This document shows positions 5,612-58,800 of a stretch of DNA of 64,000 nt, piece after piece (within the stretch, counting starts at the first letter, position 1; the number at the start of each line of letters is the position of its first letter). The position numbers were made by a program, and so were the translations under genes. This DNA comes from a virus: IMG/VR virus record IMGVR_UViG_3300025276_000021; one strand, given 5' to 3'. The notes beneath the pieces are model-generated. The model saw only the letters and a program-made list of their open reading frames with translations. It searched no databases and was not told the DNA's origin.

Positions 5612-5641
5612 TAAAATATTCCTTTGTGATTAAATAAAATA

Positions 5642-6060: not shown

Positions 6061-6116
6061 TTAATATCATCAACTACAGTAGTATATAGTCTCCTATTTG
6101 TCATTTAATTGACAAC

Positions 6117-6217: not shown

Positions 6218-8152
6218 TTATACTCCTTCTTTATATAAGTAAACCCTGCCTATATTTGCGTAGCTATATGCAGAACCAGAATACACACCATTTCCTACGC
6301 CATCTACGTTCTGTAAACCATCTGCACTAATCAAGCATTGTGTGCCATCACCTGTCATACTAACATTGTGACCAAAGTTAGCTGCCTCTGAGATCACCCC
6401 AGCAGCAAAACTTGGGACTATTCTTTCGTGTTCAGTCCAAGTTGAACCTGATCTAAGATATGTATATGCTGCACCGAACCAAGTTGTTCCACTACTGAAG
6501 GCGCGGAGTTCACCTAAGGCACCAATTATCAATTTATCTCCTGCTGCATCTAATGTTACTGTTCCAAATCTATATGTTTGTGCCGAACCATTTGTTGGAT
6601 ATGAAGCGGGTCTTATATGTTGTTGATGCGTCCATGTTGTTCCCGATCTTGTCCAGACATTTACAAAGCCACCAGAAGAACCTACTACCGCTCCCCATGC
6701 AAAAGTATTTCCGTCATATGATAAAGATAAAGCATTATTAGAGGAACCACCGCCTTCCCCTTGCCCGTTCCAACCACCGGCGTAGCCGATATTGTCGGTA
6801 TTTCTGTAATACGAACTTTCGCCGAATTGGTAATTTGTTGTGGTTATAGTGTGTTCTTCATTTGAACCAACAGAATTAGCCCAACTTGTGCCATTATATT
6901 TGTAAATATATATCTTGCCCGCGTTGGTGCCCGCGCTGTCTTGTCCATGCGCGGCAACAGCTAAAGTGCTACCATCACCTGACAAACAGACAGTGTTAAA
7001 CTGATCATTCGCTACCGAATCGGAACCACTAAATACTGTTTGCTCAGTCCAAGTTGTTCCACTTCTGGTTAAAATAGAAACTTCACCTGCGTTGTACGCT
7101 ACAGTGTTTTGCCTTTTTCCACCATCATTTGTTCCGCCTCGGTTAGAACCAACAGCAAGCGTATTTCCGTCATCACTTAAATCTATAGTCTTGCCATAAT
7201 ATTGATATTGTTGATTTGTGCCTGACCTCATAAGGGTTTGTTGTGTTGACCAAGTGGTTCCAGTTCTAGATAATACAAATACTCTTCCTGCATATGTAAT
7301 TGAACCATCTGTATAATCTGAGTGTGCTACCGCAATAGTATTTCCATCAGCACTTATTGCTAAGGAATCTCCAACACCCATATATTGTTCAGTTGTTGAT
7401 TGGGTTGGAGAAAATGTATGTTGGAGTGTCCAAGTAGTGCCGCTATCAGATGTAACATATATGTATGCTTCTCCACCTACACTAGAATCTGATCTAACTG
7501 CAATACCACTAGTAGATACCACAACAGTATTTCCATCACTTGATATTTTAGCCCGTCTACCGAATTGAGGGTAATGAGCATCCAAGAGATATGTGGGTGG
7601 GGTAAACGTAGCTAAAACCGCCGGTGCTTCCCAAGTGCCAAATGATAATGTAAATGCACTTACTGAACTAACCGCTGAATTTACGCCATCCGTTACACTA
7701 AATGTAATACTGAATGTCGTGGCATTACTTGCATGAGGAGTAATAGTGAATACGTTATCTGCGTTTGCAACAGTTGTTCCATTTAATGAACCAGCTGTTA
7801 CGCTTGATGACCACGTTAAAGCCATTCCTTCTGGATCCGTAGCCACTGCAGTAATTGTAGTGGCTGTTCCATCACTTGCTAAGCCATACGTTGAATTTAC
7901 ACCAGTAATAGAAGAAGGTGAAGCATTTGTTACTTCAGCGACCAGATACCAGCCTACTCCTGACCAGATATACAATTTATTTGTAGACGTAATAAATGCT
8001 TTATTACCAACAGTATCTGAGGTCGCTGGCAAATCAGCCAAATTTGTATAATGCTCCATTGAAGCTACAGTATCTAAAGGCTGGGCTGGATCAGTAGCTC
8101 TTACATAAGTAGGCAATTCTGTTGCGTATTTTATTTCAGAATATTTTGCCAT
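6218..8152 (-). CDS. tail fibre or receptor-binding protein with FG-GAP-like beta-propeller
   Basis: repeated FG..(V/I)(S/A)ISxDGNT.AV and RSGTTW motifs; N-terminal module shared with the next gene. Confidence 0.75.
   Translation of the reverse strand: MAKYSEIKYATELPTYVRATDPAQPLDTVASMEHYTNLADLPATSDTVGNKAFITSTNKLYIWSGVGWYLVAEVTNASPSSITGVNSTYGLASDGTATTITAVATDPEGMALTWSSSVTAGSLNGTTVANADNVFTITPHASNATTFSITFSVTDGVNSAVSSVSAFTLSFGTWEAPAVLATFTPPTYLLDAHYPQFGRRAKISSDGNTVVVSTSGIAVRSDSSVGGEAYIYVTSDSGTTWTLQHTFSPTQSTTEQYMGVGDSLAISADGNTIAVAHSDYTDGSITYAGRVFVLSRTGTTWSTQQTLMRSGTNQQYQYYGKTIDLSDDGNTLAVGSNRGGTNDGGKRQNTVAYNAGEVSILTRSGTTWTEQTVFSGSDSVANDQFNTVCLSGDGSTLAVAAHGQDSAGTNAGKIYIYKYNGTSWANSVGSNEEHTITTTNYQFGESSYYRNTDNIGYAGGWNGQGEGGGSSNNALSLSYDGNTFAWGAVVGSSGGFVNVWTRSGTTWTHQQHIRPASYPTNGSAQTYRFGTVTLDAAGDKLIIGALGELRAFSSGTTWFGAAYTYLRSGSTWTEHERIVPSFAAGVISEAANFGHNVSMTGDGTQCLISADGLQNVDGVGNGVYSGSAYSYANIGRVYLYKEGV
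7876..7986. repeat. duplicated segment, copy 1 (N-terminal fibre module)
   Basis: 34-nt (7876-7909) and 40-nt (7947-7986) blocks identical to 10621-10654 and 10692-10731. Confidence 0.9.
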
Positions 8153-8155
8153 AAT

Positions 8156-33188: not shown

Positions 33189-33439
33189 CATCTTTCTGCC
33201 CTTGGAAGATGATCTAAGTTTTCTAAACCCATGGTACTTCTATTCAATAAATCCCAAATTTGATCTACTGTCATATTTGGATATTCGCCTTTTAGCATAG
33301 GGGCAATTTTTCGGTTGGCTTCTACTTGCCTCGCTCTAATCATAGAAACCCACAAACGGTTGAGAGAATCGTTGATCAGATCAATTAATGAACTAATTGC
33401 TTTCGTTAAGTAGTTGTGACTTGTTAGTATATGTTGCAT
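33188..33439 (-). CDS. hypothetical protein
   Basis: 83-aa ORF with GAGGA SD inside the end of hsp20. Confidence 0.65.
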   Translation of the reverse strand: MQHILTSHNYLTKAISSLIDLINDSLNRLWVSMIRARQVEANRKIAPMLKGEYPNMTVDQIWDLLNRSTMGLENLDHLPRAER

Positions 33440-33863
33440 TTGAGTTTTCCTCGTTTTTTCCTATTGAAATTTTACGAGGACGCATTTCTTCTGGGATTTC
33501 ATACTTCAGTTCTACGGCAAGTATGCCATCTTGAATATCTGCTCCGTTTACTTGAACGTGTTCAGACAATCGAAAAGTACGTTTAAACTTCTTGGTACTA
33601 ATACCTCGATGAATAAAGTCTCTTCCTTTGCTAACGTGTTCTCCAGTTATCATCAAAGTTCTATCTTTAACTTCTATTGATAATTCATCTTTTGAAAAGC
33701 CTGCAACTGCAAGTTCAATAAGATATTCATGCTCACTCGCTTTAATAATATTGTGAGGTGGATAGTGATCAGATGCATGACGAACTGTGTGTTCCATTTC
33801 GTTAAACAAATGATCGAATCCTACAAAAGATGATCGTGGAAATAGTGTTTGAATGCCTGTCAT
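33393..33863 (-). CDS. small heat shock protein (Hsp20/IbpA family)
   Basis: YPPHNI, IELAVAGF, HRGIS.KKF.RTFRL, DGIL; start reassigned to ATG 33863 (GAGGAG SD). Confidence 0.95.
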   Translation of the reverse strand: MTGIQTLFPRSSFVGFDHLFNEMEHTVRHASDHYPPHNIIKASEHEYLIELAVAGFSKDELSIEVKDRTLMITGEHVSKGRDFIHRGISTKKFKRTFRLSEHVQVNGADIQDGILAVELKYEIPEEMRPRKISIGKNEENSNATYTNKSQLLNESN

Positions 33864-33963
33864 TTTGGGGTTCTCCTCTTCCAAGCAAGAATGTTCTGGG
33901 ACCAGATTATTCTGCATCCCGCCTTCATTGGACAACCTCTACAAGCTGTCTCTGTAGTATATA
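33864..33963 (-). promoter_or_regulatory. ROSE-like RNA thermometer in the hsp20 5' UTR
   Basis: three hairpins (33950-33931, 33920-33898, 33891-33871); the last is UUCUU(G)CUU-GGAA-GAGGAGAA, with UUGCU pairing the SD and a bulged G. Confidence 0.7.
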
Positions 33964-33969
33964 TGTATT

Positions 33970-33998
33970 ATTATAGTCTATTTCAAGAGTAATGTCAA
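33970..33998 (-). promoter_or_regulatory. consensus sigma70-type promoter for hsp20
   Basis: TTGACA-17-TATAAT. Confidence 0.8.
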
Positions 33999-34005
33999 GA
34001 TTTAT

Positions 34006-34947
34006 TTAAAATTTTATTCGCATATTAGCGTTTATTCTAGAAATCTCTATTGCCAAATCTTGATTTCTGTCGTGCATCTCAATCTCTTTGCCGAGTTTAT
34101 TTTCAATCCAATCCTCAGCTTTGTCCCATTCAAATTGAACACCAGAGCGCATATCATTTCTTATTTCATGGGTCATATGTACTTGTCTTATTTTATAATT
34201 ATTAACAATTACCTCGTCCCATTGTCCAGCTGGCATCCGATCTTCATTATAATGACTTTGTATCTTTTTGGCAAGTGCTTTAGCATTCTTCTTATATGTT
34301 TTTGTTGCGGCTTCAATATAACCTTTGATAATATCAGAAAGTTCTCCGCTTCTATTTTTTTGCTTTAATTCTGCAGGCAGAAGTTGCCAATACATGGTTA
34401 GACTTTCGCCTTTATTATTAGGTTTTTTACCCCAAACTCTTTCAATAGCACTTATAACATATTTTTCCATATCAGCAGGCATAGTTCCCAAATCCTTTAG
34501 ATCGACCTTGGTATTTTCAAATTTATCAGTGTATGTATCAGAGCGAGCCAATTCATACATTTCATACCAACGCCTGCCCGAATTGTCGGGTTCTGATCCA
34601 ATATCACCGGAGAACGATCCTAACAAATCAGCTTCCAATTCATAGATAACTTGAGCACCACTAGTGGCGACACCTCTAGCAAGACTCGTAGAGGACATAT
34701 TCAAAAATGCGGAAATGCCGCGCTTTTTGTTCTCACCTTTAAACATCGTTTTATGAAACTGTTGAGCTGCAATATGCCAGCAAGTTATTCTTGGAGGAGT
34801 AGGAGTGATCTGTTTCATTTGTGCTGAGGACATAGGCATCCAAAAATTTGCAATGCCTTCATTATCGCTTTTTTTGATATCAAATAGCTTTTGAGATAAA
34901 CTACTTTTACCATGCAATTCTAATAAATAAGACTTAAAATTTTGCAT
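34006..34947 (-). CDS. putative internal head protein, ADP-ribosyltransferase-like (paralogue of 35406-36362)
   Basis: leader MQNFKSYLLE; WH...GISAF...IYEL...WDEVIVN. Confidence 0.5.
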   Translation of the reverse strand: MQNFKSYLLELHGKSSLSQKLFDIKKSDNEGIANFWMPMSSAQMKQITPTPPRITCWHIAAQQFHKTMFKGENKKRGISAFLNMSSTSLARGVATSGAQVIYELEADLLGSFSGDIGSEPDNSGRRWYEMYELARSDTYTDKFENTKVDLKDLGTMPADMEKYVISAIERVWGKKPNNKGESLTMYWQLLPAELKQKNRSGELSDIIKGYIEAATKTYKKNAKALAKKIQSHYNEDRMPAGQWDEVIVNNYKIRQVHMTHEIRNDMRSGVQFEWDKAEDWIENKLGKEIEMHDRNQDLAIEISRINANMRIKF

Positions 34948-35406
34948 CTATTTTGCTTTCCTTGTCAATATATAAAGAGATAATTCATCCAAATCTAGTT
35001 CTTCAATTTTAAAGCCCATTTTAGTAGCAAATCGTTTTACTAATTTACTGTATAATTTGTTTCTGCTTCCGCTCTCACCATCTTCGGCAGATTTAGATGC
35101 TGTAAAACTTGCGACTTTTATTTGTGGATTTTTCTCTATAAATTCTTTTATGTGGTTTATTACTGCGCCAAATATTTGCATTTGGTCGCCTTTACCAGTA
35201 ACAGACATATCACCACCAACACTGAATACAATATTAACGTCCGATTTTTCAGGAATATTTTTAGATTGTGACCAATTATAAATCATTTCTACAAATTGTT
35301 TACCTATTCGACCGAGATATTTTTCAGTTTCAGGTCTGGTGCTAGTTTGTTTCCACTGAATTTTAGTGTTGAACGATTCGCCCAAATGTGATTTAAAACT
35401 TATCAT
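34948..35406 (-). CDS. putative internal head protein, unknown function
   Basis: leader MISFKSHLGE; C-terminal SRNKLYSKL...GF is loosely GNAT-like. Confidence 0.55.
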   Translation of the reverse strand: MISFKSHLGESFNTKIQWKQTSTRPETEKYLGRIGKQFVEMIYNWSQSKNIPEKSDVNIVFSVGGDMSVTGKGDQMQIFGAVINHIKEFIEKNPQIKVASFTASKSAEDGESGSRNKLYSKLVKRFATKMGFKIEELDLDELSLYILTRKAK

Positions 35407-36362
35407 TAACTTTTAATCCTTGTTGCTAATATATGGGACTGTAAATCTCTAGAATTATCCCACTCAACAACCTCTATACCTCTACTTTTAGCATCTTCCA
35501 TTGCATCTGTAACATCTGACCATAATCCATTTACAAATTGTGGTGCGGAGAGTAGTACATGTAGTTTTTTAACTTTATACTGATTGACAATCATTTCGTC
35601 CCAGGCAGCCTTGTCCAACTTATCAACATATTGTTTTTTTAGTGCAGTCGCTATTTTCTTTGAATTTTTCATATAAGATTTGTTGACTGTATCAATATAA
35701 CCCTTGATAATATTGCCCATCTCTTTTTTTGCGCCAGCTGAGTCAGGCGAACCATGTTTATCTTCTAAGTGTCTTGGTACATCTACCCAATCTGGGCGTA
35801 AGCCTCTTTTTGTATGTCCGTCTAAATTGCCTAATACTTTTCTCACATATGTTTCTATATCTTTGGGTAAACTACCCAAGTCGTTTTTCTCAAGTGGTCT
35901 ATGTAAATCGTTGATATGTGGGAAATCAGAAGTGTTATGGAATCCAGTGTCTAATAATGATTGCAATGTTACCCATCTTCTACCAGTCTTATCTACGCCT
36001 GAACGCACATCCGTTTCGAATGAACCTAAAAGATTAGCATCTAATTCATAGATAAAACCACCGCCAGACGCAATACCTCTATCCATACTACTTGGTTTCA
36101 TATTTCTAAATGCGGACAGTCCAGATTTTTTGTTTTGTCCTTTAACAAGTTTATCGTGATTACTTTCGCTAGTGACATGAAAAACAGAGCCTCTAATTTC
36201 AGTTGGCATCACTCTTTTTATGTTTGCATTACCCATAGGTATTTTAAATGACATTATATCACCATCTTTGCCGCCGAAAAGAGGCATATTAAAGAGATGC
36301 TTGGATAAGCTTGCCTGACTAAAAACTTCCTCTAATTGCATATATTGATAGAATGTTTTCAT
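35406..36362 (-). CDS. putative internal head protein, ADP-ribosyltransferase-like (paralogue of 34006-34947)
   Basis: leader MKTFYQYMQLEE; FH...GLSAF...IYEL...WDEMIVN. Confidence 0.5.
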   Translation of the reverse strand: MKTFYQYMQLEEVFSQASLSKHLFNMPLFGGKDGDIMSFKIPMGNANIKRVMPTEIRGSVFHVTSESNHDKLVKGQNKKSGLSAFRNMKPSSMDRGIASGGGFIYELDANLLGSFETDVRSGVDKTGRRWVTLQSLLDTGFHNTSDFPHINDLHRPLEKNDLGSLPKDIETYVRKVLGNLDGHTKRGLRPDWVDVPRHLEDKHGSPDSAGAKKEMGNIIKGYIDTVNKSYMKNSKKIATALKKQYVDKLDKAAWDEMIVNQYKVKKLHVLLSAPQFVNGLWSDVTDAMEDAKSRGIEVVEWDNSRDLQSHILATRIKS

Positions 36363-36625
36363 TTTCTATTCCTGAGTCTCGGTTCTCTACGATTATATCT
36401 TACTGTGACTGACGCTAGATTTTTCAAGTCATTGTTGAGAGGATTATTATCTTTGTGATGGATGTCACGACCATCTCCATCCTCTGCCATTCCAGACCGA
36501 ACAGCGGCGCGTCTTGCTCTTTTTCTAGCTGCATTTCTTTTCATCTGCTCAGGAGTACCAAGATAGTTTTCGCGTTCTTTTTTATAGTCTCTACCTTCAC
36601 TAATATATGCTTTAAAAGTTTTCAT
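36359..36625 (-). CDS. small HNH endonuclease-like protein with capsid-targeting-like leader
   Basis: MKTFKAYISE; DIHHKDNNPLNNDLKNL...NR. Confidence 0.75.
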   Translation of the reverse strand: MKTFKAYISEGRDYKKERENYLGTPEQMKRNAARKRARRAAVRSGMAEDGDGRDIHHKDNNPLNNDLKNLASVTVRYNRREPRLRNRK

Positions 36626-37191
36626 GCTACATTATCCCAAAAAGTTTTACTAATTTCGCCTGCAGGAGAGGCAGACGTACTAGATGCTGGAGTGTTTGCA
36701 GTCCCACCCATATTGCTGTGGTTTGTACAGTAATAATATAAATTAGGAGCACCAACAGCAACAGTTATCTGAGTATATGCTCCAGCACTTCCCGGAGTTC
36801 CTGACGTTGTTACGCCCGTTGTGTATTCACTACCACCGCCATGTGTCCCATTAGATGTAGCACTGAATCTTAATGGATGGTTTGAGTTAGAAGAATCTGA
36901 TTGATCAAATTTATATGTTCTACCTTCTGATAAACTTAATATTCTCTCGGGCCCAACTGCATCTATATAATATCTATTTCCTACTCCTGGATTTGAAACT
37001 GTTACAGCAAAGGTAACAGTACCAGCACTTACTGTTCTGCGGACACTTGTATACACAGCATGACCATTTGTAGTTCTAATACCATTTGTTTGTTTTAACC
37101 ATAGAGGTCTTAATGGGCTATTAGCACCGGGATCAGGCGGAGCGTTATCATATTGCCAACTAGAATTGTTTGTAATATTTACGAACGCCAT
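36622..37191 (-). CDS. protein with cupredoxin/plastocyanin-like domain, probably virion-associated
   Basis: NHPLRFS...LYYYCTNHSNMGG; late promoter upstream. Confidence 0.7.
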   Translation of the reverse strand: MAFVNITNNSSWQYDNAPPDPGANSPLRPLWLKQTNGIRTTNGHAVYTSVRRTVSAGTVTFAVTVSNPGVGNRYYIDAVGPERILSLSEGRTYKFDQSDSSNSNHPLRFSATSNGTHGGGSEYTTGVTTSGTPGSAGAYTQITVAVGAPNLYYYCTNHSNMGGTANTPASSTSASPAGEISKTFWDNVA

Positions 37192-37203
37192 GTGTCGGTC
37201 TCC

Positions 37204-38418
37204 TCATCGTTTGTTTTTACTATTTATATGTTTTAATAAATCTTCTTTATTGCTTTTACCAGTCTTAATAGAATAGTCTAGTGCAGATTGTAATACATCT
37301 CCAATAGCTTTACCCTTAAATCCAGCTTTAACTGCATCTCTACCATCTATTGGCATGTCTTTTACTGAAATATATTTTATACCCTTTAGTCTACTCGACA
37401 GAGTTTTAGATCCTTTTGCAGATAAAAATGCGTCTATAGCTCTAACATCAACACTTTTAGCATAGTTTGCAAGCTCAACATTATTCATACCTTCTTTCCA
37501 GTCTACGACATTTTGAACAATTTTTGCATCCGTATTCGAAAGTCGTATGACTGTTTTGGCAGTTGAGCCTGCTTTGTTTCCGTAGTCGCTAAGTAATATT
37601 CCCATGAATACAGCAAAATCACTTTTGCCGAGAGCGTCAATTGTTTTCAAATCGTTTGATTTTAATTTAATTGATTTAAATATATGTTTCATCAAACCAG
37701 AATCGAATAGTATTTTTACACCAATACTAGGTTTCTTAGATTTACTGAAAAGCTTTTTAAATTCTTCTTGGAATCTATCTGCGGAAATGGTAGAGATAGT
37801 GCTTGCTCTTTTCTTCATTTCCTTGTATGTCTCTTTTTCGATAGTAAAATCAAATCTTGATGCAAACTGCACAGCTCGAAACATTCTGAGAGGATCATCC
37901 TCGAACGATGTTGGACTGATCATGCGGATTTGCTTATTCTTTATATCCTTCATGCCTTTACCATCAACGTCTATTATCTCACCAGTATCAACATCTTTCG
38001 CTAGTGCATTTATCCAAAAATCGCGCCTTAGCTGATCTTGCTGTAGCGTAATGCCTTTACCAAGTTCTACTTCAAAGTCTTTATGACCTGAGCCTGTGCT
38101 TTTTGAGTCAATTCTTGGCACAGAAATATCTACATCCTCAGCTTCAGTAGAGCCTGTAGGAACAAATTTTAGAATGCCGAACGACTTGCCTACCATGTTG
38201 ACTTTACCGTGAGGCTTTAGAATTTTTTCTATATCATCTAACTCGATTCCAACAATGATAATATCAAGATCCTTAGATATTTTACCTATCATTTCATCAC
38301 GGACAACACCGCCTATTTGATATATTTTCCCACCCGCGCTTTTGATTGCTTTTCGTATCTGCGTTGACAGAAGGTCATCGACCATACTTTCATTCAAATG
38401 AGATATAAAACTTTTCAT
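37204..38418 (-). CDS. cca: class II tRNA nucleotidyltransferase (CCA-adding enzyme) with capsid-targeting-like leader
   Basis: GGVVRD, DLDI, DQLRRDFWINAL, EDDPLRMFRAVQFASRF; leader MKSFISHLNE. Confidence 0.88.
   Translation of the reverse strand: MKSFISHLNESMVDDLLSTQIRKAIKSAGGKIYQIGGVVRDEMIGKISKDLDIIIVGIELDDIEKILKPHGKVNMVGKSFGILKFVPTGSTEAEDVDISVPRIDSKSTGSGHKDFEVELGKGITLQQDQLRRDFWINALAKDVDTGEIIDVDGKGMKDIKNKQIRMISPTSFEDDPLRMFRAVQFASRFDFTIEKETYKEMKKRASTISTISADRFQEEFKKLFSKSKKPSIGVKILFDSGLMKHIFKSIKLKSNDLKTIDALGKSDFAVFMGILLSDYGNKAGSTAKTVIRLSNTDAKIVQNVVDWKEGMNNVELANYAKSVDVRAIDAFLSAKGSKTLSSRLKGIKYISVKDMPIDGRDAVKAGFKGKAIGDVLQSALDYSIKTGKSNKEDLLKHINSKNKR
37221..37228 (-). promoter_or_regulatory. T4-type late promoter TATAAATA
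   Basis: exact match within the 3' end of cca, upstream of 37191. Confidence 0.7.
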
Positions 38419-38428
38419 GGTTTATTCC

Positions 38429-38776
38429 TTACCAGTGTTGTACATCTGGATATCTGACAATTGCTCTAATTGATCTTACGGCTAGCTTTGCTGTCGGATC
38501 ACCCCTATCATATAATACAACCTCTGTACCATTTACAAAATCTGATACATTCACACCTTTGCCTATAAGAGACATGGTTCTGTGTAAATAATCATTTTCG
38601 TCGTAATCATTTTCAAATCCTGCTTTGCCTCGAACCTCAACCCACTTACTGCCTGGTAATGGTCGAATCCTTAGAATACCCATCTTACCTTGCCTGATAT
38701 AGGTCAATGCGTAAGACTCTTTTTTCTTACGTTGATTTTTCGTCAATTCAGTTATAAATCTAGTAAAAGATTTCAT
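38429..38776 (-). CDS. putative internal head protein, unknown function
   Basis: leader MKSFTRFITE. Confidence 0.6.
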   Translation of the reverse strand: MKSFTRFITELTKNQRKKKESYALTYIRQGKMGILRIRPLPGSKWVEVRGKAGFENDYDENDYLHRTMSLIGKGVNVSDFVNGTEVVLYDRGDPTAKLAVRSIRAIVRYPDVQHW

Positions 38777-38781
38777 AGCAT

Positions 38782-39345
38782 TTATCCTTTCACATAAGGT
38801 TTGATAATAGTTTCTATGTTTTTTATGATTTTCTTATGTGTAGGACTAAGATCCTTACGATCAGCTTTTACAGCGTCTAAGGCTATTTTTGTATCGCCCG
38901 CATATTTCTTTTGCCATGATGCTGGCTGCTTTGCAATATCAGACACATTTGCTAATCTATCTGCAAGTTTAATAACAAGTGCCCAGCTTGTCATATTAAC
39001 CATTTTGCCTTTGATATATTCACCTTTGCCGCCGGCAGCTTCTAGATCATCTTTCTTAGTTGTCAATTGATCAACTAAATTTGCAACTAATCCACCAAAC
39101 TGTTTGACCAAATCGTCATGCGATAAGTCAGTGTCCTCTAACGTATCGTGTAGATATGCAGCTTGAACTAGTGCAGATAGATTTGAGGATTTAGGTTTGA
39201 ATTTTGCGACTATTTTCGCAACTTCTTTTGGATGAGCAATATATCTACCACCACTTTTCCTAAATTGTCCTTCATGTGCCTTTGTAGCAACTCTTAATGC
39301 ACTTAGGGCGCTTTCATTAAGCATATGCGACTTAAAAGATTTCAT
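38782..39345 (-). CDS. stand-alone RelA/SpoT HD-domain hydrolase (small alarmone hydrolase) with capsid-targeting-like leader
   Basis: AHEGQFRKSG..YIAHP, LHDTLEDT, IKLADRLAN; leader MKSFKSHMLNE. Confidence 0.88.
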   Translation of the reverse strand: MKSFKSHMLNESALSALRVATKAHEGQFRKSGGRYIAHPKEVAKIVAKFKPKSSNLSALVQAAYLHDTLEDTDLSHDDLVKQFGGLVANLVDQLTTKKDDLEAAGGKGEYIKGKMVNMTSWALVIKLADRLANVSDIAKQPASWQKKYAGDTKIALDAVKADRKDLSPTHKKIIKNIETIIKPYVKG

Positions 39346-39382
39346 ATCTTTTTTTCCTTGACTGATTCTATTTCTTATATTT

Positions 39383-39411
39383 AGACTAACACGCTAGTCC
39401 AATAATGTCAA
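39383..39411 (-). promoter_or_regulatory. possible sigma70-type promoter
   Basis: TTGACA-17-TAGTCT with extended TG; weak -10. Confidence 0.45.
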
Positions 39412-39419
39412 TAGTAGAT

Positions 39420-39836
39420 TTACTTTTTTCCGATGTTATATTTGGGACACAATTCCCAATTTACTTTTTCTTTAAAAGGAATAATCTTAATCTGTCTCAG
39501 AGGTGCCATAATTTCGGCTGCCTTACCATTAACTAAAGTAATCAATCCCCAATCAGAAATGAGTGTTGCTATAGTGTTTCTTCTAGCAACGTCACTTTCT
39601 TCAAGGTTAGATTTTTTACCATCTAGTAGAAATAGTTCCTTAAAATGTACTATAAAGTATCTACCCTGCTTATGCAGAATATGACACGATTGAAATAATT
39701 TATTCTCTTTTCTACTCGAAACGCCGATTCTAGTTAAAGTTTCACGAACCTTCAGAAAATCGTCAGGTTCGTTTAAGGTAATCTCTAACATGGATTCCGG
39801 AGTCCAAGCAACTATATTTGATTCATCCATTGTCAA
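39420..39836 (-). CDS. regA: translational repressor RegA
   Basis: PDDFLKVRETLTRIG...QSCHILHKQGRYFIVHFKELF. Confidence 0.96.
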   Translation of the reverse strand: MTMDESNIVAWTPESMLEITLNEPDDFLKVRETLTRIGVSSRKENKLFQSCHILHKQGRYFIVHFKELFLLDGKKSNLEESDVARRNTIATLISDWGLITLVNGKAAEIMAPLRQIKIIPFKEKVNWELCPKYNIGKK

Positions 39837-39874: not shown

Positions 39875-39882
39875 TATTTATA
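39875..39882 (-). promoter_or_regulatory. T4-type late promoter TATAAATA
   Basis: exact match upstream of regA and the 34-39 kb cassette. Confidence 0.7.
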
Positions 39883-49151: not shown

Positions 49152-49649
49152 CTATTTTATCTCATAGTAGCCGACTCTAAACGTAACAGGAAACGTGATA
49201 ACAGGCGATGTTTCGGATGTGGCTTCTAACAAAATTGTTCCTATTGATGTAGCGACACAATCGATATATCGAATTGTTTTTACCACATTATTATGGCTAC
49301 TAGTAATCGTCACTGTAATATCCATGGCTGAACCGTTCTTAGAACTTTTTGACATAGGACTTTCGTATTTTTCTGTTACCATATTTTGAATCAGATTAAA
49401 TACTTCAATATAAGTATTTAGATTTTCATCTACTAAAATATCCATCGACAAATCTTCAAATGTGAGAGTATCGCCAGGTAAAGTTATCGTTTGTATTCTC
49501 TTAAATGGAACGGACGGGGAATTGATCGAAACTCCGGGATGAATTAATCTTTGTGCAAAAAATTCTAAGTTCCCAAATTTAGAGTGATCTATCACAACCT
49601 TAAAGTTTGTGGGTTGAAGATAGTTCATATTTTGTGTTAATGCTGACAT
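49152..49649 (-). CDS. gp3: tail tube terminator/completion protein
   Basis: NYLQPTNF, PGDTLTFEDL...LVDENL..Y; synteny; late promoter. Confidence 0.85.
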   Translation of the reverse strand: MSALTQNMNYLQPTNFKVVIDHSKFGNLEFFAQRLIHPGVSINSPSVPFKRIQTITLPGDTLTFEDLSMDILVDENLNTYIEVFNLIQNMVTEKYESPMSKSSKNGSAMDITVTITSSHNNVVKTIRYIDCVATSIGTILLEATSETSPVITFPVTFRVGYYEIK

Positions 49650-50405: not shown

Positions 50406-51755
50406 TTATGCACCCAGAATGTTGTCAACTCTGAAGATTCTGTAATACTGATTAGTCTTAGCGTTTGCAAGACCGTCAGAAGCTGTTGGACCAACAAAAG
50501 GATTCGAAACCATGCCGTAGCGGGTCTTAAAGCCGATTTTTGGTTGAAAGCTATCCTCAGCAACAGCGCGAACCATTGTGAGAGGTACGTATGGGCAATA
50601 GAAGATACCAGCATCGTATGCATTTGTACCTTTATAGCCACATGTGATGTAGTCAACAGTTGCATATGGATCAACATATACTTTTGTACGACCGTTAAGA
50701 ACACCAGCAAAAGTGTTTCCTGTATCATCTACGTTCAAGTTGGCAGAGATTGCTGGAGCATAGTCTAGCATTCCGGTTGCAGCCAAGCATGACGCAACGT
50801 CCGAAGAAGTGATGATAAAGTTACCACGACCGCGGCGAGTATCTTTTGCGATTGCGTTTGCTTCGCGCTCGATTTGTACCATCAGACCTTTGAACTTTTC
50901 AACACTCCAACGACCGTCTGCATCTGTTTGCAGATCAAACACACCGTTAAGAAGGGTGTTAGCTTGACTTGCGCCAGTTTTAGCTTGGCTGTTGATTGTG
51001 CGGATAACTTCACGATTGATTTCCGCGAGGATTTCAGTCGAAAGAATGTTAGCCAGTTCACTTTCAGCGTCCAGACCGTGGATAGCTTTCAAGTCTTGTG
51101 CGAGTTCAAGCGAATATTCTGCTTTCAATGCGCGTGTTTTGGCTGATACGTCTGCACGATCAATGGTGAAACCCATTTCTGCCCATGCGCTTGCGCCGGA
51201 TGTGCCCAGTCCTTCGCCTTCAACTTTAGTCATGCCGCCTGCAGGAGCTGCACTATTACGGTTATCGTCGATAGTTGAGTCTGCGTTAGCATCAGCAACA
51301 CCAGCAAGACCAGAACCATCTACAATGTTAGTTGTAGCGGAATCGCCTGAGAAGCCAGTGACGGCTTCGCTATGCAGTGCTTCATTGCCGCTAGTTGCAC
51401 CAGCGCGAGTAGTTTTGTAGGTAGATTTCATTGCAAAGATCAGTCCAGTTGGACCAGTCATTGGCTGAACACCACATACGTCATATGCCATCATGTTAGG
51501 CATAGCACGACGAACCAACGAAATCAGAACTGGGTCCCAATTTTGTACGTTACCAGTGTTGTTTGCTGGAGCTGCTTCAGTCAGTCCACCAAAACCTTGG
51601 TATTGTGTGCGCTGCTCCATGAGAGCTTTTTCTTGGTTCTCAAGAACAACAGCAGTTACCGACTTGCGGTGCTTGTCTTGAATTGCGCCAGCAGATTCTT
51701 CATTCAGAACTGGTGCCCACTTTTCAATAAGTGTATTGTAGTTAGTTGTTTGCAT
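50406..51755 (-). CDS. gp23: major capsid protein
   Basis: KWAPVL, LTEA cleavage site, VQPMTGPTGLIFAM, YCPYVPL, FKTRYG. Confidence 0.98.
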   Translation of the reverse strand: MQTTNYNTLIEKWAPVLNEESAGAIQDKHRKSVTAVVLENQEKALMEQRTQYQGFGGLTEAAPANNTGNVQNWDPVLISLVRRAMPNMMAYDVCGVQPMTGPTGLIFAMKSTYKTTRAGATSGNEALHSEAVTGFSGDSATTNIVDGSGLAGVADANADSTIDDNRNSAAPAGGMTKVEGEGLGTSGASAWAEMGFTIDRADVSAKTRALKAEYSLELAQDLKAIHGLDAESELANILSTEILAEINREVIRTINSQAKTGASQANTLLNGVFDLQTDADGRWSVEKFKGLMVQIEREANAIAKDTRRGRGNFIITSSDVASCLAATGMLDYAPAISANLNVDDTGNTFAGVLNGRTKVYVDPYATVDYITCGYKGTNAYDAGIFYCPYVPLTMVRAVAEDSFQPKIGFKTRYGMVSNPFVGPTASDGLANAKTNQYYRIFRVDNILGA

Positions 51756-51766
51756 TTTAATAACTC

Positions 51767-52867
51767 CTAGGTATTATTTTTAAGTGCGGCAACATAATGT
51801 GCCATGCTAGAGGAAACATCAACAGGCGCTTCTGTTTCTTCGCTTTCTTCAGTAATCATTGTTTCTTCAACTAGATCAGCATGTGTTTCTACATCTGATT
51901 TATTTGAAAAATATGATTCCTTGATGGTTTCGACTTTAAAGAGAAACGACTCAACGTCCTCAAATTCGATTCCTTCTGCTAGTTTTTCTAATTTGGTTGC
52001 TTGAGTATCTGCAAGATCCTTAGAAGCTTCACGAATGATCGCGAGGCGTTGTAGGTCTTTTACATGCTCATTCATTTCCATATTAGTAGCTGTTTGCTTG
52101 TTTAGGCGAGTCTCAAGTTCTTGGACTTCCTCTGCAAGCTGGTCAACTAGATCAACTTTGGATTCTGGAACTTCGATATATGACTCAGTAAACAGGTCTT
52201 TCAACTTGCTCATAAATCCTTCTGAAATTTCATTCCGAATACCAGTCTCAACAGCGAGACGGTTTTCTTCTACCCATTGTTCGACTACATAGTTAAGATA
52301 AGAATCAATTTTGTCTACCAATTCGCTTTTGGCTTCCACAATTGCTTCCGAAGTCTCGTCGGCGTATTGCTCTTCGAGGCTTTCGATTCTATTGCTAAAT
52401 GCTTCTTCCAATTCTTGAACTTTTGATTCAACCCGAAGGTTCAATGCGGCTTCAAAAATAGTGCCAGCTTTATCTTTAAAATCTTCTGATAGTGACTCAT
52501 CGCTTGAAATCAGTGCTTCGAGATCAGCTTCGGTAGTATCTTCTACCATCACTTCTTCCTCGTCACTTACTTCAATTTCTTCGCCCATCATGCTTGAATA
52601 AGCCGCCATCAACTTAACTTTGTTAAGCTCTGACATTTTTTGGCTCATTGCATTGATCATACCCGCTTTAGTTTTCGGGGGTGATGCTTTTTTTACATTG
52701 CTAGTATCACCAGCGGCTTTTGCTGGATCAGCGGGGCCTCCGGTACCAGCATCTTCAGATCCACCGGCTGGCAGCTCCATGCTGCTCTCCGATACATCTA
52801 GTTCTTCGTTAGATTCCACAATTTCCTCATCATGGACTTCAACGTATTCTTGATCTTGATCAGTCAT
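51767..52867 (-). CDS. gp22: prohead core scaffold protein
   Basis: acidic coiled coil, IFEAA, DSYLNYVVEQW; synteny. Confidence 0.92.
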   Translation of the reverse strand: MTDQDQEYVEVHDEEIVESNEELDVSESSMELPAGGSEDAGTGGPADPAKAAGDTSNVKKASPPKTKAGMINAMSQKMSELNKVKLMAAYSSMMGEEIEVSDEEEVMVEDTTEADLEALISSDESLSEDFKDKAGTIFEAALNLRVESKVQELEEAFSNRIESLEEQYADETSEAIVEAKSELVDKIDSYLNYVVEQWVEENRLAVETGIRNEISEGFMSKLKDLFTESYIEVPESKVDLVDQLAEEVQELETRLNKQTATNMEMNEHVKDLQRLAIIREASKDLADTQATKLEKLAEGIEFEDVESFLFKVETIKESYFSNKSDVETHADLVEETMITEESEETEAPVDVSSSMAHYVAALKNNT

Positions 52868-52881
52868 ACTTGACTCCTTTT

Positions 52882-53529
52882 TTATTTCAATAACGAGAGG
52901 AAATTTTCAAACCCACGAACTTGCGCTTCTTGCAATGCTCTTGATGGTGCTCTTTTTATTTCAGTCTCTATTTTTTCAATGTCTTGAGCCTCGATCAGAC
53001 CATTATTCCAAACCCACTCTACACCTTCCATAATTCCATTAACAAAAGCATTAGGTGCAGATGGATCCTGGACAATGTCGATAGTGCTAAGGACGAAATC
53101 GTCTTTAACTTCCATCACGCCGTTACGATTTTCCAGACTTCCCATACCACGAGTCGAAACACCTAGTTGAACACCGCCATCTAGCAGACCTTTAACAATC
53201 TTACCCATAGGAGTATCTAATATAAGTGCTTTACCCATCACATTATTTCCCTCAAAATTGAGATCCGTAATACGATGGGATACTTTATCCAAATTAATAG
53301 TCGGGCCTTCGGGGTGATTTAACTCACCAACAGCACGACCTTTGGAAACTTGTTCTGTAACATATTTGCCTACAGCTTTTTCCATAATCGCTTTCGGATA
53401 ATTTCTACCGTTACGATTTTTTTGGTCAGCTTGTGCAAATACACCTTCGATTTGATAAGACTTAGCTTCGCCTTTACCTTCAGTGACCAGTGATAGATCG
53501 TGGTCACAATATTCTGCGATTAGTTTCAT
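52882..53529 (-). CDS. gp21: prohead protease
   Basis: NRNGRNY, GELNHP, GVSTRGMGSL, DIVQDPSAPNAFV. Confidence 0.96.
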   Translation of the reverse strand: MKLIAEYCDHDLSLVTEGKGEAKSYQIEGVFAQADQKNRNGRNYPKAIMEKAVGKYVTEQVSKGRAVGELNHPEGPTINLDKVSHRITDLNFEGNNVMGKALILDTPMGKIVKGLLDGGVQLGVSTRGMGSLENRNGVMEVKDDFVLSTIDIVQDPSAPNAFVNGIMEGVEWVWNNGLIEAQDIEKIETEIKRAPSRALQEAQVRGFENFLSLLK

Positions 53530-53532
53530 GTC

Positions 53533-53736
53533 TTATCCTTTACCTTTAGAAAATTGTTTAATAAACTCTTTAGCCATTTTAATAGCATCTTTTTCAGAAT
53601 CGTAATCATCTAAATGTTCGCCGTCGATAGTAGCTTTAAATCGATCACCAGCTTTAGTGACAACAATCGTTTGATCTCCAACCTTAACTTTTTTCTCAGT
53701 CAACAACGATTCTTTTAGTTCATTAAAAGTTTTCAT
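53533..53736 (-). CDS. prohead core protein (gp68-like)
   Basis: MKTFNELKESLLTE leader; position before gp21. Confidence 0.6.
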   Translation of the reverse strand: MKTFNELKESLLTEKKVKVGDQTIVVTKAGDRFKATIDGEHLDDYDSEKDAIKMAKEFIKQFSKGKG

Positions 53737-54082: not shown

Positions 54083-55858
54083 TTATATTGGTGTACCTTC
54101 ATTATATGGCAATTTCTTGAAACCACCTGTACCAGTTGAATTTGTTGAAAACCATATTACAACCATTGCTGGACCTCCAGGCATACCCGGCTGCTCAGTT
54201 CCTATATTGTTGCCACCACTTAAAAAATAGTTACTTGCCGCACCACCACCACAGCCAAATGCATTAAAACGGTTGCCGCTAGTATCCGCTGTGATACTAT
54301 TTAAGTAGGTTCTATGATCTGCTCCAGAAAATCCTCCATACACTCCACCACCGCCCATAGAGTTATTACCTGCGTTTGTGCCCGCTACACCTCTAGAATC
54401 TCTACCACCAGTCAGTGGAGTTAGATTTTCGTTAGTGTACTGTCCAGTTAGAAAAAATTTACTAAACCAATTTTGGGGATAATTTCTTCTACTTGAGCTT
54501 TTTTGGTAGTGTCTGTATTTAGCACTATTTTCAAACTTTAACTCATCGGCACTTGAAGAATAAGTTGGGGGACCAGAGCTGTGTGATGCCGACGGAAAAG
54601 ATGTAACTGATCCGCCCTGATACCCAACGCCAGAATGTTTGCTCCAAAAAGCATTGTTATTGTTATTGCTAAAAGGTGGATATGGGTCTACAAATGGGGG
54701 ATTAGTTCCATCATATATGACTCGTCGCCAAGATTCGCCATTGCCAGATAGTAATGGTAAAATACTACTTCCACCACTATTATATCCGCCAGGCGAATTA
54801 AATGAACCGCCAAACGTAGTGTACCACGTGTATTCACCGTTATATGTACTAAATGTTGCTTCAGATGCACCACCGCCTGCGCCGCCAAAATTGCCTTGGC
54901 TTCCAGAGCCACCATTTGTACCGCCGTCACCTCCATCTGCTTGATTTACTCCTGTCGCGTCGAAGCCGCCTGCGCCGCCACCGCCACCGCCGAAAGCTGC
55001 CGCTGTAGTAGGTCTGAGTACTGTTACACCTTCTCCACCAGTGCCACCTATTCCAATAAATGAGTTGCTTGGTTGAACAGGGATAGTGCCACCAGCACCG
55101 CCATAAATTAGCGTCTGCATCGCTGTGCTGGGTGGGACATAATAGAAATCTGATCCACCCCCACCACCGCCGTTTACTTTAGCTATAATATTGTCTACAT
55201 GATCGTCTCCAGTTACGCCAGAAGAACTACTAATTATAATGGGTCCACCTGCGCCACCGCCCAATGTGGTGGCACCATTGTGGTAAGAACCGCCGGCATA
55301 ACCTGGTGATCCAATTTCAATCTTATATTGTCTATTTTTATCAAAAGGGATGCCGTGAGTAGTCAACAAACATGAGCCTCCACCACCGCCACTACCGCCC
55401 ATGAGCCATTGCTGACCTTGGTAGTTAGTAGTTCTCTCACTTAAACTACCACCGCCGCCGGCACTTAACGCATAAAATCCCCATGTACCTCCATCATATA
55501 CATCCATATCAGTACTCCAAGGAATTCCGCCAGTGCCGAAATCTTTTCCAAAGTAATAAGTTTTTGTTGCACCTTTAGATTCACTTGTTAGGGATCTAAC
55601 AGACCTAGTACCTGTCATATAAATGGTTGCAGCAATTGGATTTCCTGTAACACTATTTGCTGCTCCATAAAAATCAAACAGACTAATAGTAGTGCCAGCG
55701 CTGCCGGCTGGGATATTTTTTGTAGTTATATTATTTGGTACAAAGTTTCCCCCCAATGATCCACCTCGATAATATTCGAATAATCCTTGAGCATTCGTCC
55801 CACCAAACTCATTCTCTATATCATCTAATGATATAGGACCATGGTACGGTAAAACCAT
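54083..55858 (-). CDS. glycine-rich fibre or adhesin protein
   Basis: GPISL.DI..EFGG...ISLFDFYG N-terminus and many polyglycine stretches. Confidence 0.7.
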   Translation of the reverse strand: MVLPYHGPISLDDIENEFGGTNAQGLFEYYRGGSLGGNFVPNNITTKNIPAGSAGTTISLFDFYGAANSVTGNPIAATIYMTGTRSVRSLTSESKGATKTYYFGKDFGTGGIPWSTDMDVYDGGTWGFYALSAGGGGSLSERTTNYQGQQWLMGGSGGGGGSCLLTTHGIPFDKNRQYKIEIGSPGYAGGSYHNGATTLGGGAGGPIIISSSSGVTGDDHVDNIIAKVNGGGGGGSDFYYVPPSTAMQTLIYGGAGGTIPVQPSNSFIGIGGTGGEGVTVLRPTTAAAFGGGGGGAGGFDATGVNQADGGDGGTNGGSGSQGNFGGAGGGASEATFSTYNGEYTWYTTFGGSFNSPGGYNSGGSSILPLLSGNGESWRRVIYDGTNPPFVDPYPPFSNNNNNAFWSKHSGVGYQGGSVTSFPSASHSSGPPTYSSSADELKFENSAKYRHYQKSSSRRNYPQNWFSKFFLTGQYTNENLTPLTGGRDSRGVAGTNAGNNSMGGGGVYGGFSGADHRTYLNSITADTSGNRFNAFGCGGGAASNYFLSGGNNIGTEQPGMPGGPAMVVIWFSTNSTGTGGFKKLPYNEGTPI

Positions 55859-58800
55859 TATTTATTTTCCTCATTTTCCAATTTTTCAATACGTCCTTTT
55901 AATTCTTTTATTGATTCTATCAATAAAGGAATAAGTTTTTCGTAGTATACTGCCTTATAACCATCTATTCTATCTATAACAATTTCTGGCATCACTGCCT
56001 CAACTTCCTGCGCAATAACACCAACATCTTTTAAATCTGTATTTCTACCTTCAGCTTTTTCGTTCCAGTTGAAAGTATATCCACTTAATGAAGAAATTTT
56101 ATCTAAAGAATTGTTTATTTTCTCTATATTTTCTTTCAACCTAGAATCTGATGAGTGTGCAGCTATTATATTTCCTGTAGCTCTAATTTCTCCTGCTACA
56201 GTGAAATCGCCAGTATAATTACCACTCATGGCTAAGGTTTCATTTGTAGCGTCTACTGTTATACCCTTATTCGCTACTGCCGTATATGTTGTACCGCCGC
56301 CTAAAGCATCATCGTCAATATCAAACGTGACTGTCTGATTCAATGCTGTAATAGAAAGTGCTGCATTTGAGGAAGCAAACGTAATATTTTGTTTATCTGC
56401 GTTCAATGTAGTTGAACTGGCGTCAGCTCCAACTATTTGACCTATAAAGAATGAAGGTTTAAATTGAAGTATTCCTGTTGCAGAATCATAAAATAAAGCA
56501 GCGTCTACGGAATCTGCTACAGCATTAGGGCCTATAGTTAAAGGCGGTGGCGGAGCTACATTAGTCCAACTATCACCGTTGTACTCTAATATATCATATT
56601 GCTGTGGGTTCGTAATCGTTACATCTTGCAATGAATCTAGCCAAGCGTATAATGTGACAGAAACACTATCTTCCGCCCAATCTGCAGACATTGTTGGCAT
56701 TAAACGAATACCAGTACCACCATTCCAATAAAAGCCATCTCTGCCAGATCCTGATGCTGGATCACTAGTTGAAAATATCTCTTGGTCATATGGAGAATTT
56801 GCAGCGTCATAACTCTTTATCCAAAATCTTGAAAAACTATGAGGAAAACTAATGTTAAATTGTCCTGTAGCTTCTGCATAAGCAAGTGAACCTTCGTTTG
56901 TCGGATTATCTTCAACTATAGTAAAGTTTGAATATGATCCATCAGAATTTTGTGCTGCTGTAATAGCTTCTGCATGTTCCGTTATGGCAGACTCTGGAAC
57001 AACAGGCATCAAGGCCGGAGCCAACGGTCCCGCTGCGGAATCAATTTTAGCTGCAGGTATTTGAGGTATTTCGGCAGCAACTAGTTCGTCTACATTTAAA
57101 GTTATAGTTCCTGTTGCTGCATCGTATGCTAATAGTTGAGCATATGTTCCAGTTCCAGTATTTACTGTTGTTATATCTAGTTCTGGCAACTCTGCAGTTT
57201 CTAAGGCATCTACGTTTAATGTGTATGTTCCACTCGCCTCGGTATATGCTAATTGAGCGTATGTGCCTGTGCCAGTATTTGCGGCAGAAAATAATTCTCT
57301 AACCCTCTCGTTGGTGTGATATTCGTTTATGTCGCCTTCTTGTATCTCATCTGTAGTATAGTGGCCAAGTGCATTTGGGACTGTGGCAAATGGATGGCTG
57401 AAAGTCCAAATGCCGCCACTATCATTCATCCATCTGATATATGCTGGTGGACCATCAATATCTATGCCAGCGCCGTCTGCCGAAGCTGCATCTGTTGCGC
57501 CAGAAGCTAATATAATATTTTTATCTGCGATTGTGACTTCTGTTGAATTTACTGTTGTAGTCGTACCATTAACAGTCAAATTGCCTTTAATAGTCACTAA
57601 TCCAGTGCTATCACCATGTGTAGCAGGATCAATAATAAGATTTGATGGTCCAAGTATTTGTCCAGTAAGTTCTACTGTGTCTGTGAGTAAATGTCCTTTA
57701 TTAGTTATTCTAGCTGCAATATCACCTTGCCAATTTGTTAAAGCTGAAGGACTTTGCTGTGTATCTTGAACAATAAAAGTATTTGATAGGAACTGCACAA
57801 CCAGATCTACATGATTATCTAAACTATTTGCTACTGAAGGTGGCTGCGCTGCAGCTTCATATGATGCACCTCCCACTTGAAATATTCCAGCATAAGAAAG
57901 TCCTGAAACGTAATGAGCGTCAGAAGTTGAAGGTGTACTCGCTAATCTAGCTAAATTTACTGATAAACATGCAGCTTCGAATCCTGCAGGTATAGATGAT
58001 GGTGACCACACGCCTCCGGAATGTATAACTCCCATTTCGCCGTCTATCATGGCTGAAATCAAAGCGGCTAGACCGCCATATGCACTAGGACCTAAGTTTA
58101 CAACATCTTCAATTATGCCAAATTTACTTAATTTTGTAAATGTTAGACCCACAAAATCTGCAGCATGTTCATAAAATAGCGAATCTGGATCCAATGGACC
58201 AGACTTTCTAATTCTATCTAAAGACCTACCGTTGAAAATAAAATATCTAACGTCTCCAGTAACTCCAGTAGCTCGAATGTCTACTTTGCCTTCAGGTATC
58301 AATAAAGCTGGGTTTTCATCGTCTTGTAAGATTTGACCTACTAGAATAGTTCGCCAAGGATCTTGATACCAAGTCTTTTTTGTCTCTGGATTATGATAAA
58401 ATCTTCCTGTTGCCAAATCGCCGCCAAGAATATCATTTCCTTCGCTGTCTGTATTAACTTTTTTATAGCCTACTGTCTCACCATACTTAGCTGCTTTATC
58501 AGAGTCATAAAATAGGTAAGTATCTCTCTTTTTTAAATCAACAACAGTTGTCTCATCCCAATTAAATTTTCCAGTATCTAAAGTTGAAAATTTTATGTTT
58601 GATATCAATCCTTGATTTATATTATGAAACGCAAATCCCCAGTGTACATCCTGTGCAAATATTGATAAGTCCACACCACTTCTGTAATCTGTTTGATTTA
58701 AATCGATGTTTATTTGATTAGTAATAAATGTTGAGCTTCCAAACGGCGTAGTATCAATTTTAAGACCATTTTCATTTTTCTCTATTTTAACTGTTGTGCT

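Follow-up and report, generated by a model that had tools for sequence, protein, structure and literature searches.

A leader resembling the T4 capsid-targeting sequence begins seven of eight genes in a cassette of an uncultured T4-like phage

Introduction

Why do seven neighbouring phage genes, most of whose products are otherwise unrelated, all begin with a common leader? The question is raised by IMG/VR virus record IMGVR_UViG_3300025276_000021, of which a stretch of 64,000 nucleotides (hereafter the window) was analyzed computationally. Eight tightly packed minus-strand genes at 34006-39345, whose stops and starts overlap or abut, form a cassette that is bordered by regA on one side and by hsp20 (33393-33935) on the other, and seven of the eight carry the leader (Table 1). 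A previous account written from the letters alone (the sequence-only reading) had likened the leader to the capsid-targeting sequence (CTS) of the T4 internal proteins, and had proposed that this phage grafted it onto host-derived enzymes, which are thereby packaged, cleaved, injected and active before phage transcription starts. In our estimate the leader is, with a probability of about 70%, a T4-type capsid-targeting propeptide that packs a swappable set of enzymes into the head.

Results

The leader within the window

The leader follows the pattern M-[K/Q/I]-[S/T/N]-F-x-x-[H/Y/F]-[L/I/M]-x(1-2)-E, is 10-12 residues long and ends, across the cassette, in LNE, ITE, ISE, LEE, LGE or LLE. Apart from one pair of paralogues, the bodies behind it are otherwise unrelated. 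The open reading frames (ORFs), N-termini, coordinates and leader strings that the sequence-only reading had given for seven of eight consecutive genes were all exact. When a protein regular expression that allowed the 11-12-residue form was applied to the 90 called ORFs of the window, seven matched, all of them in the cassette; outside it, no further match was found among the 90, on non-structural genes or any others. With a degenerate DNA pattern that encodes the 10-residue form, five matches were found in the window (0.44 expected; 0/100 shuffles), each at the start of a cassette gene. The clustering of the leader is far above chance. In addition, the isoelectric points of all seven mature bodies are 8.8-10.9, compared with a median of 5.5 among the remaining ORFs in the window (Mann-Whitney U test, p=2e-5), which fits proteins lying among packaged DNA.

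Match to the T4 capsid-targeting sequence

The first 10 residues of T4 internal protein IPIII suffice for encapsidation, and the T4 CTS acts in targeting chiefly through residues 4 and 7 and in processing through residues 8 and 10 (PMC9026906). The four conserved positions of the leader (4, 7, 8 and 10) are the same four that were mapped as functional in T4, and the processing machinery is encoded in the window; the likeness to the MKTYQEFIAE type that had been noticed from the letters thus held up. Among 162 unique decapeptides, for which only Met1, position 4 and Glu10 were imposed, position 7 was Tyr, Phe or His in 90% and position 8 was Leu, Ile or Val in 95%. The T4 genome matches the leader pattern at exactly three places, i.e., ipII and ipIII (both MKTYQEFIAE) and gp61.1 (MKTFKEFIKE). 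The last of these (NC_000866, 18966-19130) encodes a 54-aa hypothetical protein beside the primase gene, which is not annotated as a head protein and whose start is closer to the marine leader than are those of ipII or ipIII.

The window comes from an uncultured marine myovirus of the T4 type. Its minus strand carries the replication genes gp43, regA, gp62, an exonuclease gene, gp44 and gp45 and, further on, the head and tail genes gp23, gp22, gp21, two small core-position genes, gp20, gp19 and gp18. The features taken to identify CTS cargo, namely a leader ending in the gp21 cleavage motif (L/I)-x-E, a gp21 protease and a gp22 core, are found together here. T4 gp23 is cleaved between Glu and Ala of an L-T-E-A motif like that in the capsid protein of this phage (Table 1). 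As the sequence-only reading had stated, a 67-aa protein at a core position starts with MKTFNELKESLLTE; its gene adjoins that of the gp21 protease, and it matched no Pfam or PHROG family. A complex prediction for residues 18-215 of the gp21 protease with the first 40 residues of HD187, the first protein of the cassette, scored 0.31 against a mark of 0.32 and counts neither way. No deposited phage has a capsid protein more than 65% identical to that encoded here; the nearest by this protein are C48C1, Stenotrophomonas phage DLP_6, Methylophilales phage Melnitz, pelagiphage HTVC008M and cyanophages, and C48C1, Melnitz, HTVC008M and the cyanophage records examined are classed under Kyanoviridae. 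Megablast of the cassette against deposited phages gave no match.

Virion proteins of related phages

Virion membership of leader proteins was assessed in cyanophage S-CREM2, by calling ORFs on its genome (OR473000), matching the leader and comparing the outcome with the published virion proteome (PMC10665884, Table 3). Five of the six leader ORFs were present in the proteome, as were 47 of the 224 others (one-sided Fisher test, p=0.0025). These five are an S-adenosylmethionine (SAM) hydrolase, an APH/ChoK-like kinase, a cytidylyltransferase, ORF13 and ORF136, and their leader argues that they are true cargo. The leader was also seen on T4-GC190 (‘cytidyltransferase’, a cyanophage core gene) in Syn9, P-SSM4, P-SSM2 and S-SM1, and according to Sullivan et al. 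2010 (PMC3037559) its product was found in purified S-SM1 virions. A literature search that combined capsid targeting with cyanophage returned only a T4 review and no paper linking the leader to these phages. A further virion-detected S-CREM2 protein, the ‘Cas9-like nuclease’ ORF12 (7704-10313), has a leader-like R-F-A-S-F-M-A-E 17 residues in, which would reflect either a start called too far upstream or an internal site.

These data bear on the possibility that the leader serves assembly only, its bearers being loaded and then degraded or expelled at maturation like T4 gp22, gp67 and gp68, or else kept in the head undelivered. The leader does resemble the start of the 67-aa core-position protein, and T4 core proteins are likewise gp21 substrates (PMC9026906). 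However, S-CREM2 and S-SM1 both have leader-bearing enzymes in their mature, purified virions, and intact enzymes with conserved catalytic residues have no obvious use in assembly. We consider this explanation unlikely. The same data bear on a role apart from the capsid, in which the leader would let its bearers dock to another partner, such as a modifying enzyme, the Hsp20 chaperone encoded next door or a protease governing turnover. This genome has a radical-SAM kit elsewhere and hsp20 directly downstream of the cassette, but the leader agrees with the T4 CTS when the two are compared residue by residue, cyanophages carry it at loci distant from any such enzyme, and it predicts virion membership in S-CREM2; a tag of this kind seems quite improbable.

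Selection on the leader and its relation to the bodies

In orthologues from related IMG/VR contigs, Ser3 is encoded by either the TCT or the AGT codon family and Leu8 by TTG, CTG, TTA or CTA, and the Shine-Dalgarno regions differ. Codons thus change, even between families, while the residues are kept, and the leader is therefore maintained by selection at the protein level. It is retained on bodies that have diverged to 25-50% identity. Nearly all full-length proteins among the best 120 metagenomic homologues of the CCA enzyme (49-100% identity) begin with it, as do 62 of 150 representatives of the orf313 family, which are mutually <50% identical and for the most part share 20-38% identity with the query. 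A distant branch of the latter family (P0225, P0226, P0236, P0242, P0259, P0260) has another common leader, M-I-K-L-K-D-L-L..., possibly the targeting peptide in a different phage lineage.

If conservation acted on the RNA instead, the common start could be a translation-initiation region, e.g., a RegA operator, that is incidentally translated. T4 RegA binds AU-rich initiation regions; the first codons of the cassette genes are AU-rich, and the cassette begins right after regA, without a spacer in the related contigs L003 and L004. However, synonymous and codon-family switches alter the RNA while the residue is kept, it is residue classes and not bases that persist across differing Shine-Dalgarno regions, and the leader stands on genes away from regA (T4-GC190, the S-CREM2 genes and a cluster in C48C1). 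We regard conservation at the RNA level as very improbable.

The leader is also an addition to the enzyme bodies. Homologues of the HD protein above ~54% identity have it, often followed by a second L-N-E, and those at 45-51% identity lack it and have the first helix of the domain at their very N-terminus. Residue 23 of CCA404 aligns to residue 13 of the Bacillus (Bst) CCA enzyme 1miv, an offset of 10 residues, and residues 1-9 of the leader are disordered in the AlphaFold2 model of orf313. These comparisons show a 10-15-residue N-terminal add-on that is absent from more distant HD homologues and from solved CCA enzymes. The proposal that the leader was added to the bodies is supported to this extent, while the host origin of those bodies was not borne out. 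That this phage made the fusions was not supported, since the leader-CCA and leader-HD combinations are old and widespread and are kept to ~47-54% identity in many metagenomic phages. In the alignment of HD homologues (P0283-P0320), many leader-bearing proteins have tandem protease-type sites, with I-T-E followed by L-N-E 4-6 residues on; in HD187 the two are fused in one 11-residue leader.

The locus in other phages

A strict-codon scan of IMG/VR found the leader in at least 120 contigs, and 108 of the 124 matches listed lie at true ORF starts. In the related contigs L001-L004, bodies are swapped and the leader is kept. Two contigs with 96-97% identity in orf313 have a 77-aa ORF in place of a fibre fragment, and two others at ~70% identity have gained a DUF6321 protein and a 280-aa protein, both with the leader, and have dropped orf318 and orf152. 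A separate cluster of leader genes is found in phage C48C1; one of them encodes a DUF6267 protein whose Pfam match starts right after the leader. Contigs L057 and L065 also have clusters of their own. Contigs reached through a distant CCA homologue have up to 7 leader genes in 8 kb, with bodies that include DUF6267, DnaJ, Zeta-toxin/AAA_33-type kinase and NT5C-like domains. On these comparisons, the regA-hsp20/gp43 interval appears to be a swap site in which the bodies change and the leader stays. That the locus is so clearly a swap site could be taken to mean that the common start is a functionless relic of recombination between short identical 5' ends, but this is scarcely credible, as a stretch of 30 bases that differs at many sites lacks the length and the similarity that homologous exchange requires, and the peptide has been kept over very long divergence in the orf313 and CCA families.

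The one cassette gene without a leader, orf189, matches PHROG tail-fibre and baseplate families (1e-22 to 1e-10). It has its own TATAAATA motif, is cut in relatives to a 72-aa ORF (L003, 3225-3443) or to a six-codon remnant, and looks like a decaying insertion. In L003 (5496-6185) and L004 (10946-11635), relatives at 70% identity, the cassette ends in a gene for a 229-aa dihydroorotate-dehydrogenase-like protein, without a proper leader, which is absent from the window.

Predicted functions of the cassette proteins

HD187 matched Pfam HD_4 (5e-15; 56 bits against a cut-off of 27.2) and HD (8e-6), and its sequence matches in PDB are Rel/SpoT hydrolase domains, MESH1 and a small alarmone hydrolase. 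Its conserved residues are H24, H38, H66-D67, E70-D71 and D129; all but the first are invariant or nearly so in the alignment of HD homologues, which gives the pattern H...HD...ED...D. HD187 is predicted to be a RelA/SpoT-type hydrolase of the small alarmone hydrolase or Mesh1-like kind. CCA404 matched PolyA_pol (1e-18), PolyA_pol_RNAbd (8e-15) and phrog_2244 (9e-60), and has the motifs GGVVRD36, DLD50, RRDF131 and DDPLR174, in agreement with the GGxVRD, DxD and RRD of class II nucleotidyltransferases. Its motif D reads DDPLR, where EDxxR is expected of a CCA-adding enzyme, and among its best PDB matches CCA-adding, A-adding and poly(A) enzymes score much alike. ARAGORN found no tRNA gene in the 64 kb, despite the CCA-adding-type enzyme; it reported a permuted tmRNA at 5590-6112 with the tag ANNNFAPSGYALAA.

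Stand-alone phage alarmone hydrolases neutralize toxSAS toxins (PMC7229694), and some toxSAS pyrophosphorylate the CCA end of tRNA (10.1101/2024.07.05.602228). The hydrolase stands beside the CCA-adding enzyme, and therefore the pair suggests care of tRNA 3' ends and of alarmone levels, which could serve counter-defence or help to revive a starved host.

The paralogues orf313 and orf318 (~315 aa) are 34% identical (E 1e-53). In the orf313 family H58, D115 and E245 are invariant and S79 is conserved. The AlphaFold2 model of orf313 (predicted local distance difference test score, pLDDT, 87.6) had Tpt1, CteC and DarT/DarTG as its top structural (VIA) matches, at Z 5.0-5.5, and further toxins of the ADP-ribosyltransferase fold lower in the list, at Z 3.4-3.7, all of these values being below 8. 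Foldseek of the same model against PDB gave nothing at E<=0.001, orf313 itself had no Pfam match, a scan of 56 family members yielded scattered single matches only, and tblastn against deposited phages found none, the family being seen in metagenomes only. The ADP-ribosyltransferase fold is thus a possible lead, and only that, for the modelled orf313 and for orf318; the latter also has a Pfam match to a contact-dependent inhibition (CDI) toxin nuclease domain that is below the cut-off (E 0.007).

Of the remaining proteins, HNH88 matched Pfam HNH_3 (1.4e-6) and has an isoelectric point of 10.9 after the leader, and orf152 matched phrog_16075 (7e-11) and Atlas clusters at 0.94-0.95, all of them viral. 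For orf115, Pfam and PHROG searches gave no match and only close homologues were found; its AlphaFold2 model has low confidence (pLDDT 62.6, one model of five), a fold search gave nothing above Z 3.9, and the Atlas leads are 2H phosphoesterases (0.84-0.90).

Transcription signals

The late-promoter motif TATAAATA, which the sequence-only reading had placed upstream of regA and within the cassette, was found at both positions. Both copies are conserved in L001, L003 and L004, and the one-mismatch form TCTAAATA is also present in L001. The window holds nine TATAAATA motifs, every one on the coding strand, and in five cases a called gene starts 34-52 bases downstream; the genes behind such motifs include gp67, a 907-aa ORF and the ORF at 49152-49649. 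Late transcription of the cassette is plausible on the strength of these motifs. Right after the cassette and before hsp20, a perfect sigma-70 consensus (TTGACA, 17 bases, TATAAT; 33970-33998) appears to mark the switch to an early-type transcription unit.

Elsewhere in the window, two large genes (54083-60636) separate the portal gene from the prohead core genes, an interval that holds no such genes in T4. One encodes a 1592-aa fibre protein with a C-terminal Peptidase_S74 intramolecular chaperone, and the other a 591-aa protein with no family match.

Table 1. Positions of the cassette genes, head genes and transcription signals in the window.
Feature	Position	Strand	Description
HD187	38782-39345	-	Predicted RelA/SpoT-type HD hydrolase; leader MKSFKSHMLNE
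orf115	38429-38776	-	Basic 115-aa protein without assigned family; leader MKSFTRFITE
CCA404	37204-38418	-	Predicted class II tRNA nucleotidyltransferase, CCA-adding type; leader MKSFISHLNE
orf189	36622-37191	-	Tail-fibre-like domain protein; sole cassette gene without leader
HNH88	36359-36625	-	Very basic 88-aa protein with HNH_3 motif; leader MKTFKAYISE
orf318	35406-36362	-	Paralogue of orf313; leader MKTFYQYMQLEE
orf152	34948-35406	-	DUF6934-like viral family; leader MISFKSHLGE
orf313	34006-34947	-	Family of 155 representative clusters; leader MQNFKSYLLE
regA	39420-39836	-	Translational repressor, Pfam Translat_reg 1.5e-43; upstream border of cassette
gp21-type prohead protease	52882-53529	-	Pfam Peptidase_S77 7e-40; presumed leader-removing enzyme
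gp22-type scaffolding core protein	51767-52867	-	Pfam T4_CASP 2e-63; presumed docking matrix for the leader
gp23 major capsid protein	50406-51755	-	G-G-L-T-E-A-A at residues 56-62 (Glu/Ala junction as in T4)
67-aa basic protein, gp68 position	53533-53736	-	Starts MKTF, with L-T-E at 12-14; partial leader match
TATAAATA	39875-39882	-	T4-type late promoter motif upstream of regA; transcripts would read into cassette
TATAAATA	37221-37228	-	3' end of CCA gene, 37 nt before orf189; candidate late promoter for distal half
TCTAAATA	39378-39385	-	Late-promoter-like with one mismatch, 40 nt before HD187 start
Weak sigma-70-like site	TTGACA (39406-39411)-N17-TAGTCT	-	Overlaps TCTAAATA

Discussion

Our results favour the view that the leader is a capsid-targeting propeptide. 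Under this proposal, late transcription of the cassette would start at two TATAAATA motifs, one ahead of regA and one internal, and the leader would dock each protein on the scaffolding core during prohead assembly. The gp21 protease would then cut after the Glu of [L/I/M]-x-E and free the basic mature protein among the DNA, the cargo would exit with the DNA at infection, and from the first moment its targets would include host alarmone signalling and tRNA ends. The purpose might be to blunt a tRNA- or alarmone-based defence of the toxSAS type, or to wake a starved host. As for the sequence-only reading, its packaging idea gains support from the CTS match, the encoded machinery and the virion data of relatives, while cleavage, injection and action before transcription are inferred, and we hold cleavage and injection with lower confidence than packaging.

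Several points weigh against the proposal. Packaging in this phage is argued from its sequence and from the virions of relatives, and injection, as distinct from mere encapsidation, is argued from T4. CTS function has been demonstrated in T4 only and is transferred here, by analogy, to a lineage whose capsid protein is as distant as stated above, and Glu10 is absent in some family members. The S-CREM2 comparison covers six leader ORFs only, and the authors of that proteome warn (PMC10665884) that abundant enzymes could co-purify with virions. Late transcription is read from 8-base motifs, and early expression is possible because a weak sigma-70-like promoter precedes the cassette. Finally, a putative function could be given for only three of the seven bodies.

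A broader proposal, which we offer as tentative and rather doubtful as a whole, is that the decapeptide is a head-loading address throughout a very large, uncultured group of marine T4-like phages, whose injected proteomes could then be listed from sequence, and that this phage delivers a three-part kit for the first minute of infection. In such a kit, the alarmone hydrolase would lower (p)ppGpp or strip toxSAS-made pyrophosphate from tRNA, the CCA-adding enzyme would rebuild damaged tRNA 3' ends, and the ADP-ribosyltransferase-like enzymes would retarget host factors. Together these might revive translation in hosts that starvation or defence has arrested, and do so before any phage gene is expressed.

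The mechanism of loading is known from T4; the cargo set has not been reported before. If the capsid-targeting interpretation holds, it provides a simple sequence rule, backed by two published virion proteomes, for which enzymes of abundant ocean myoviruses travel in the particle. It would explain the recurring cytidylyltransferases, kinases and SAM hydrolase of purified cyanophage virions, which the authors could not separate from contaminants. Repair of tRNA ends and alarmone hydrolysis are functions that a phage may need at entry, and their packaging would bear on how starved marine hosts are taken over and how immunity based on tRNA or alarmones is countered. The interpretation also marks the regA-hsp20 interval as a site of cargo exchange and adds the orf313 family to the enzymes that are likely to be injected.

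Comparison with known systems

T4 Alt is a head-packaged, injected ADP-ribosyltransferase that is processed by gp21. It is comparable to the proteins described here as a head-loaded enzyme cargo trimmed by the prohead protease, and orf313 and orf318 may have the same type of fold; however, there is no sequence similarity, the fold match of orf313 is weak (Z 5.0-5.5), and the Alt propeptide is unlike the CTS of the internal proteins. The closer parallel is with T4 IPI, IPII and IPIII (Mullaney and Black 1996, via PMC9026906 and PMC3012670), which share with the leader proteins an N-terminal decapeptide (M-K-T-[Y/F]-x-x-F-I-x-E) with an aromatic residue at positions 4 and 7, an aliphatic residue at 8, Glu at 10 and a gp21 motif at its end, as well as basic mature proteins and the gp21 and gp22 machinery. 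The present leader differs in belonging to a Kyanoviridae-like marine lineage, in having Phe rather than Tyr at position 4 and in often having Tyr or His at position 7, and its cargo consists mostly of full-size enzymes, known here from sequence alone, whereas the T4 proteins are small and inhibitor-like.

Both the CTS mechanism and a variable CTS locus are already known, because the internal proteins of T-even phages have been described as diverse defence proteins with only the CTS in common (PMC3012670). The polymorphic T-even loci (Repoila et al. 1994, via PMC3012670; e.g., IPI* versus GmrSD) resemble the present one in being hypervariable, with unrelated ORFs that share only the CTS and a gene content that varies between close relatives; what differs is the position in the regA-hsp20/gp43 interval, the seven tagged genes in a row and the inclusion of RNA- and nucleotide-directed enzymes. 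The virion enzymes of T4-like cyanophages (PMC3037559, PMC10665884) come from the same phage family group and carry the same leader, but the passages of those papers examined report virion presence without a link to a targeting leader, and the enzymes differ from those in the window. Lastly, Salmonella phages PVP-SE1 and SSU5 likewise encode single-domain RelA/SpoT-type hydrolases (PMC7229694), with no capsid leader reported there, and by comparison with these the activity of HD187 is a predicted one.

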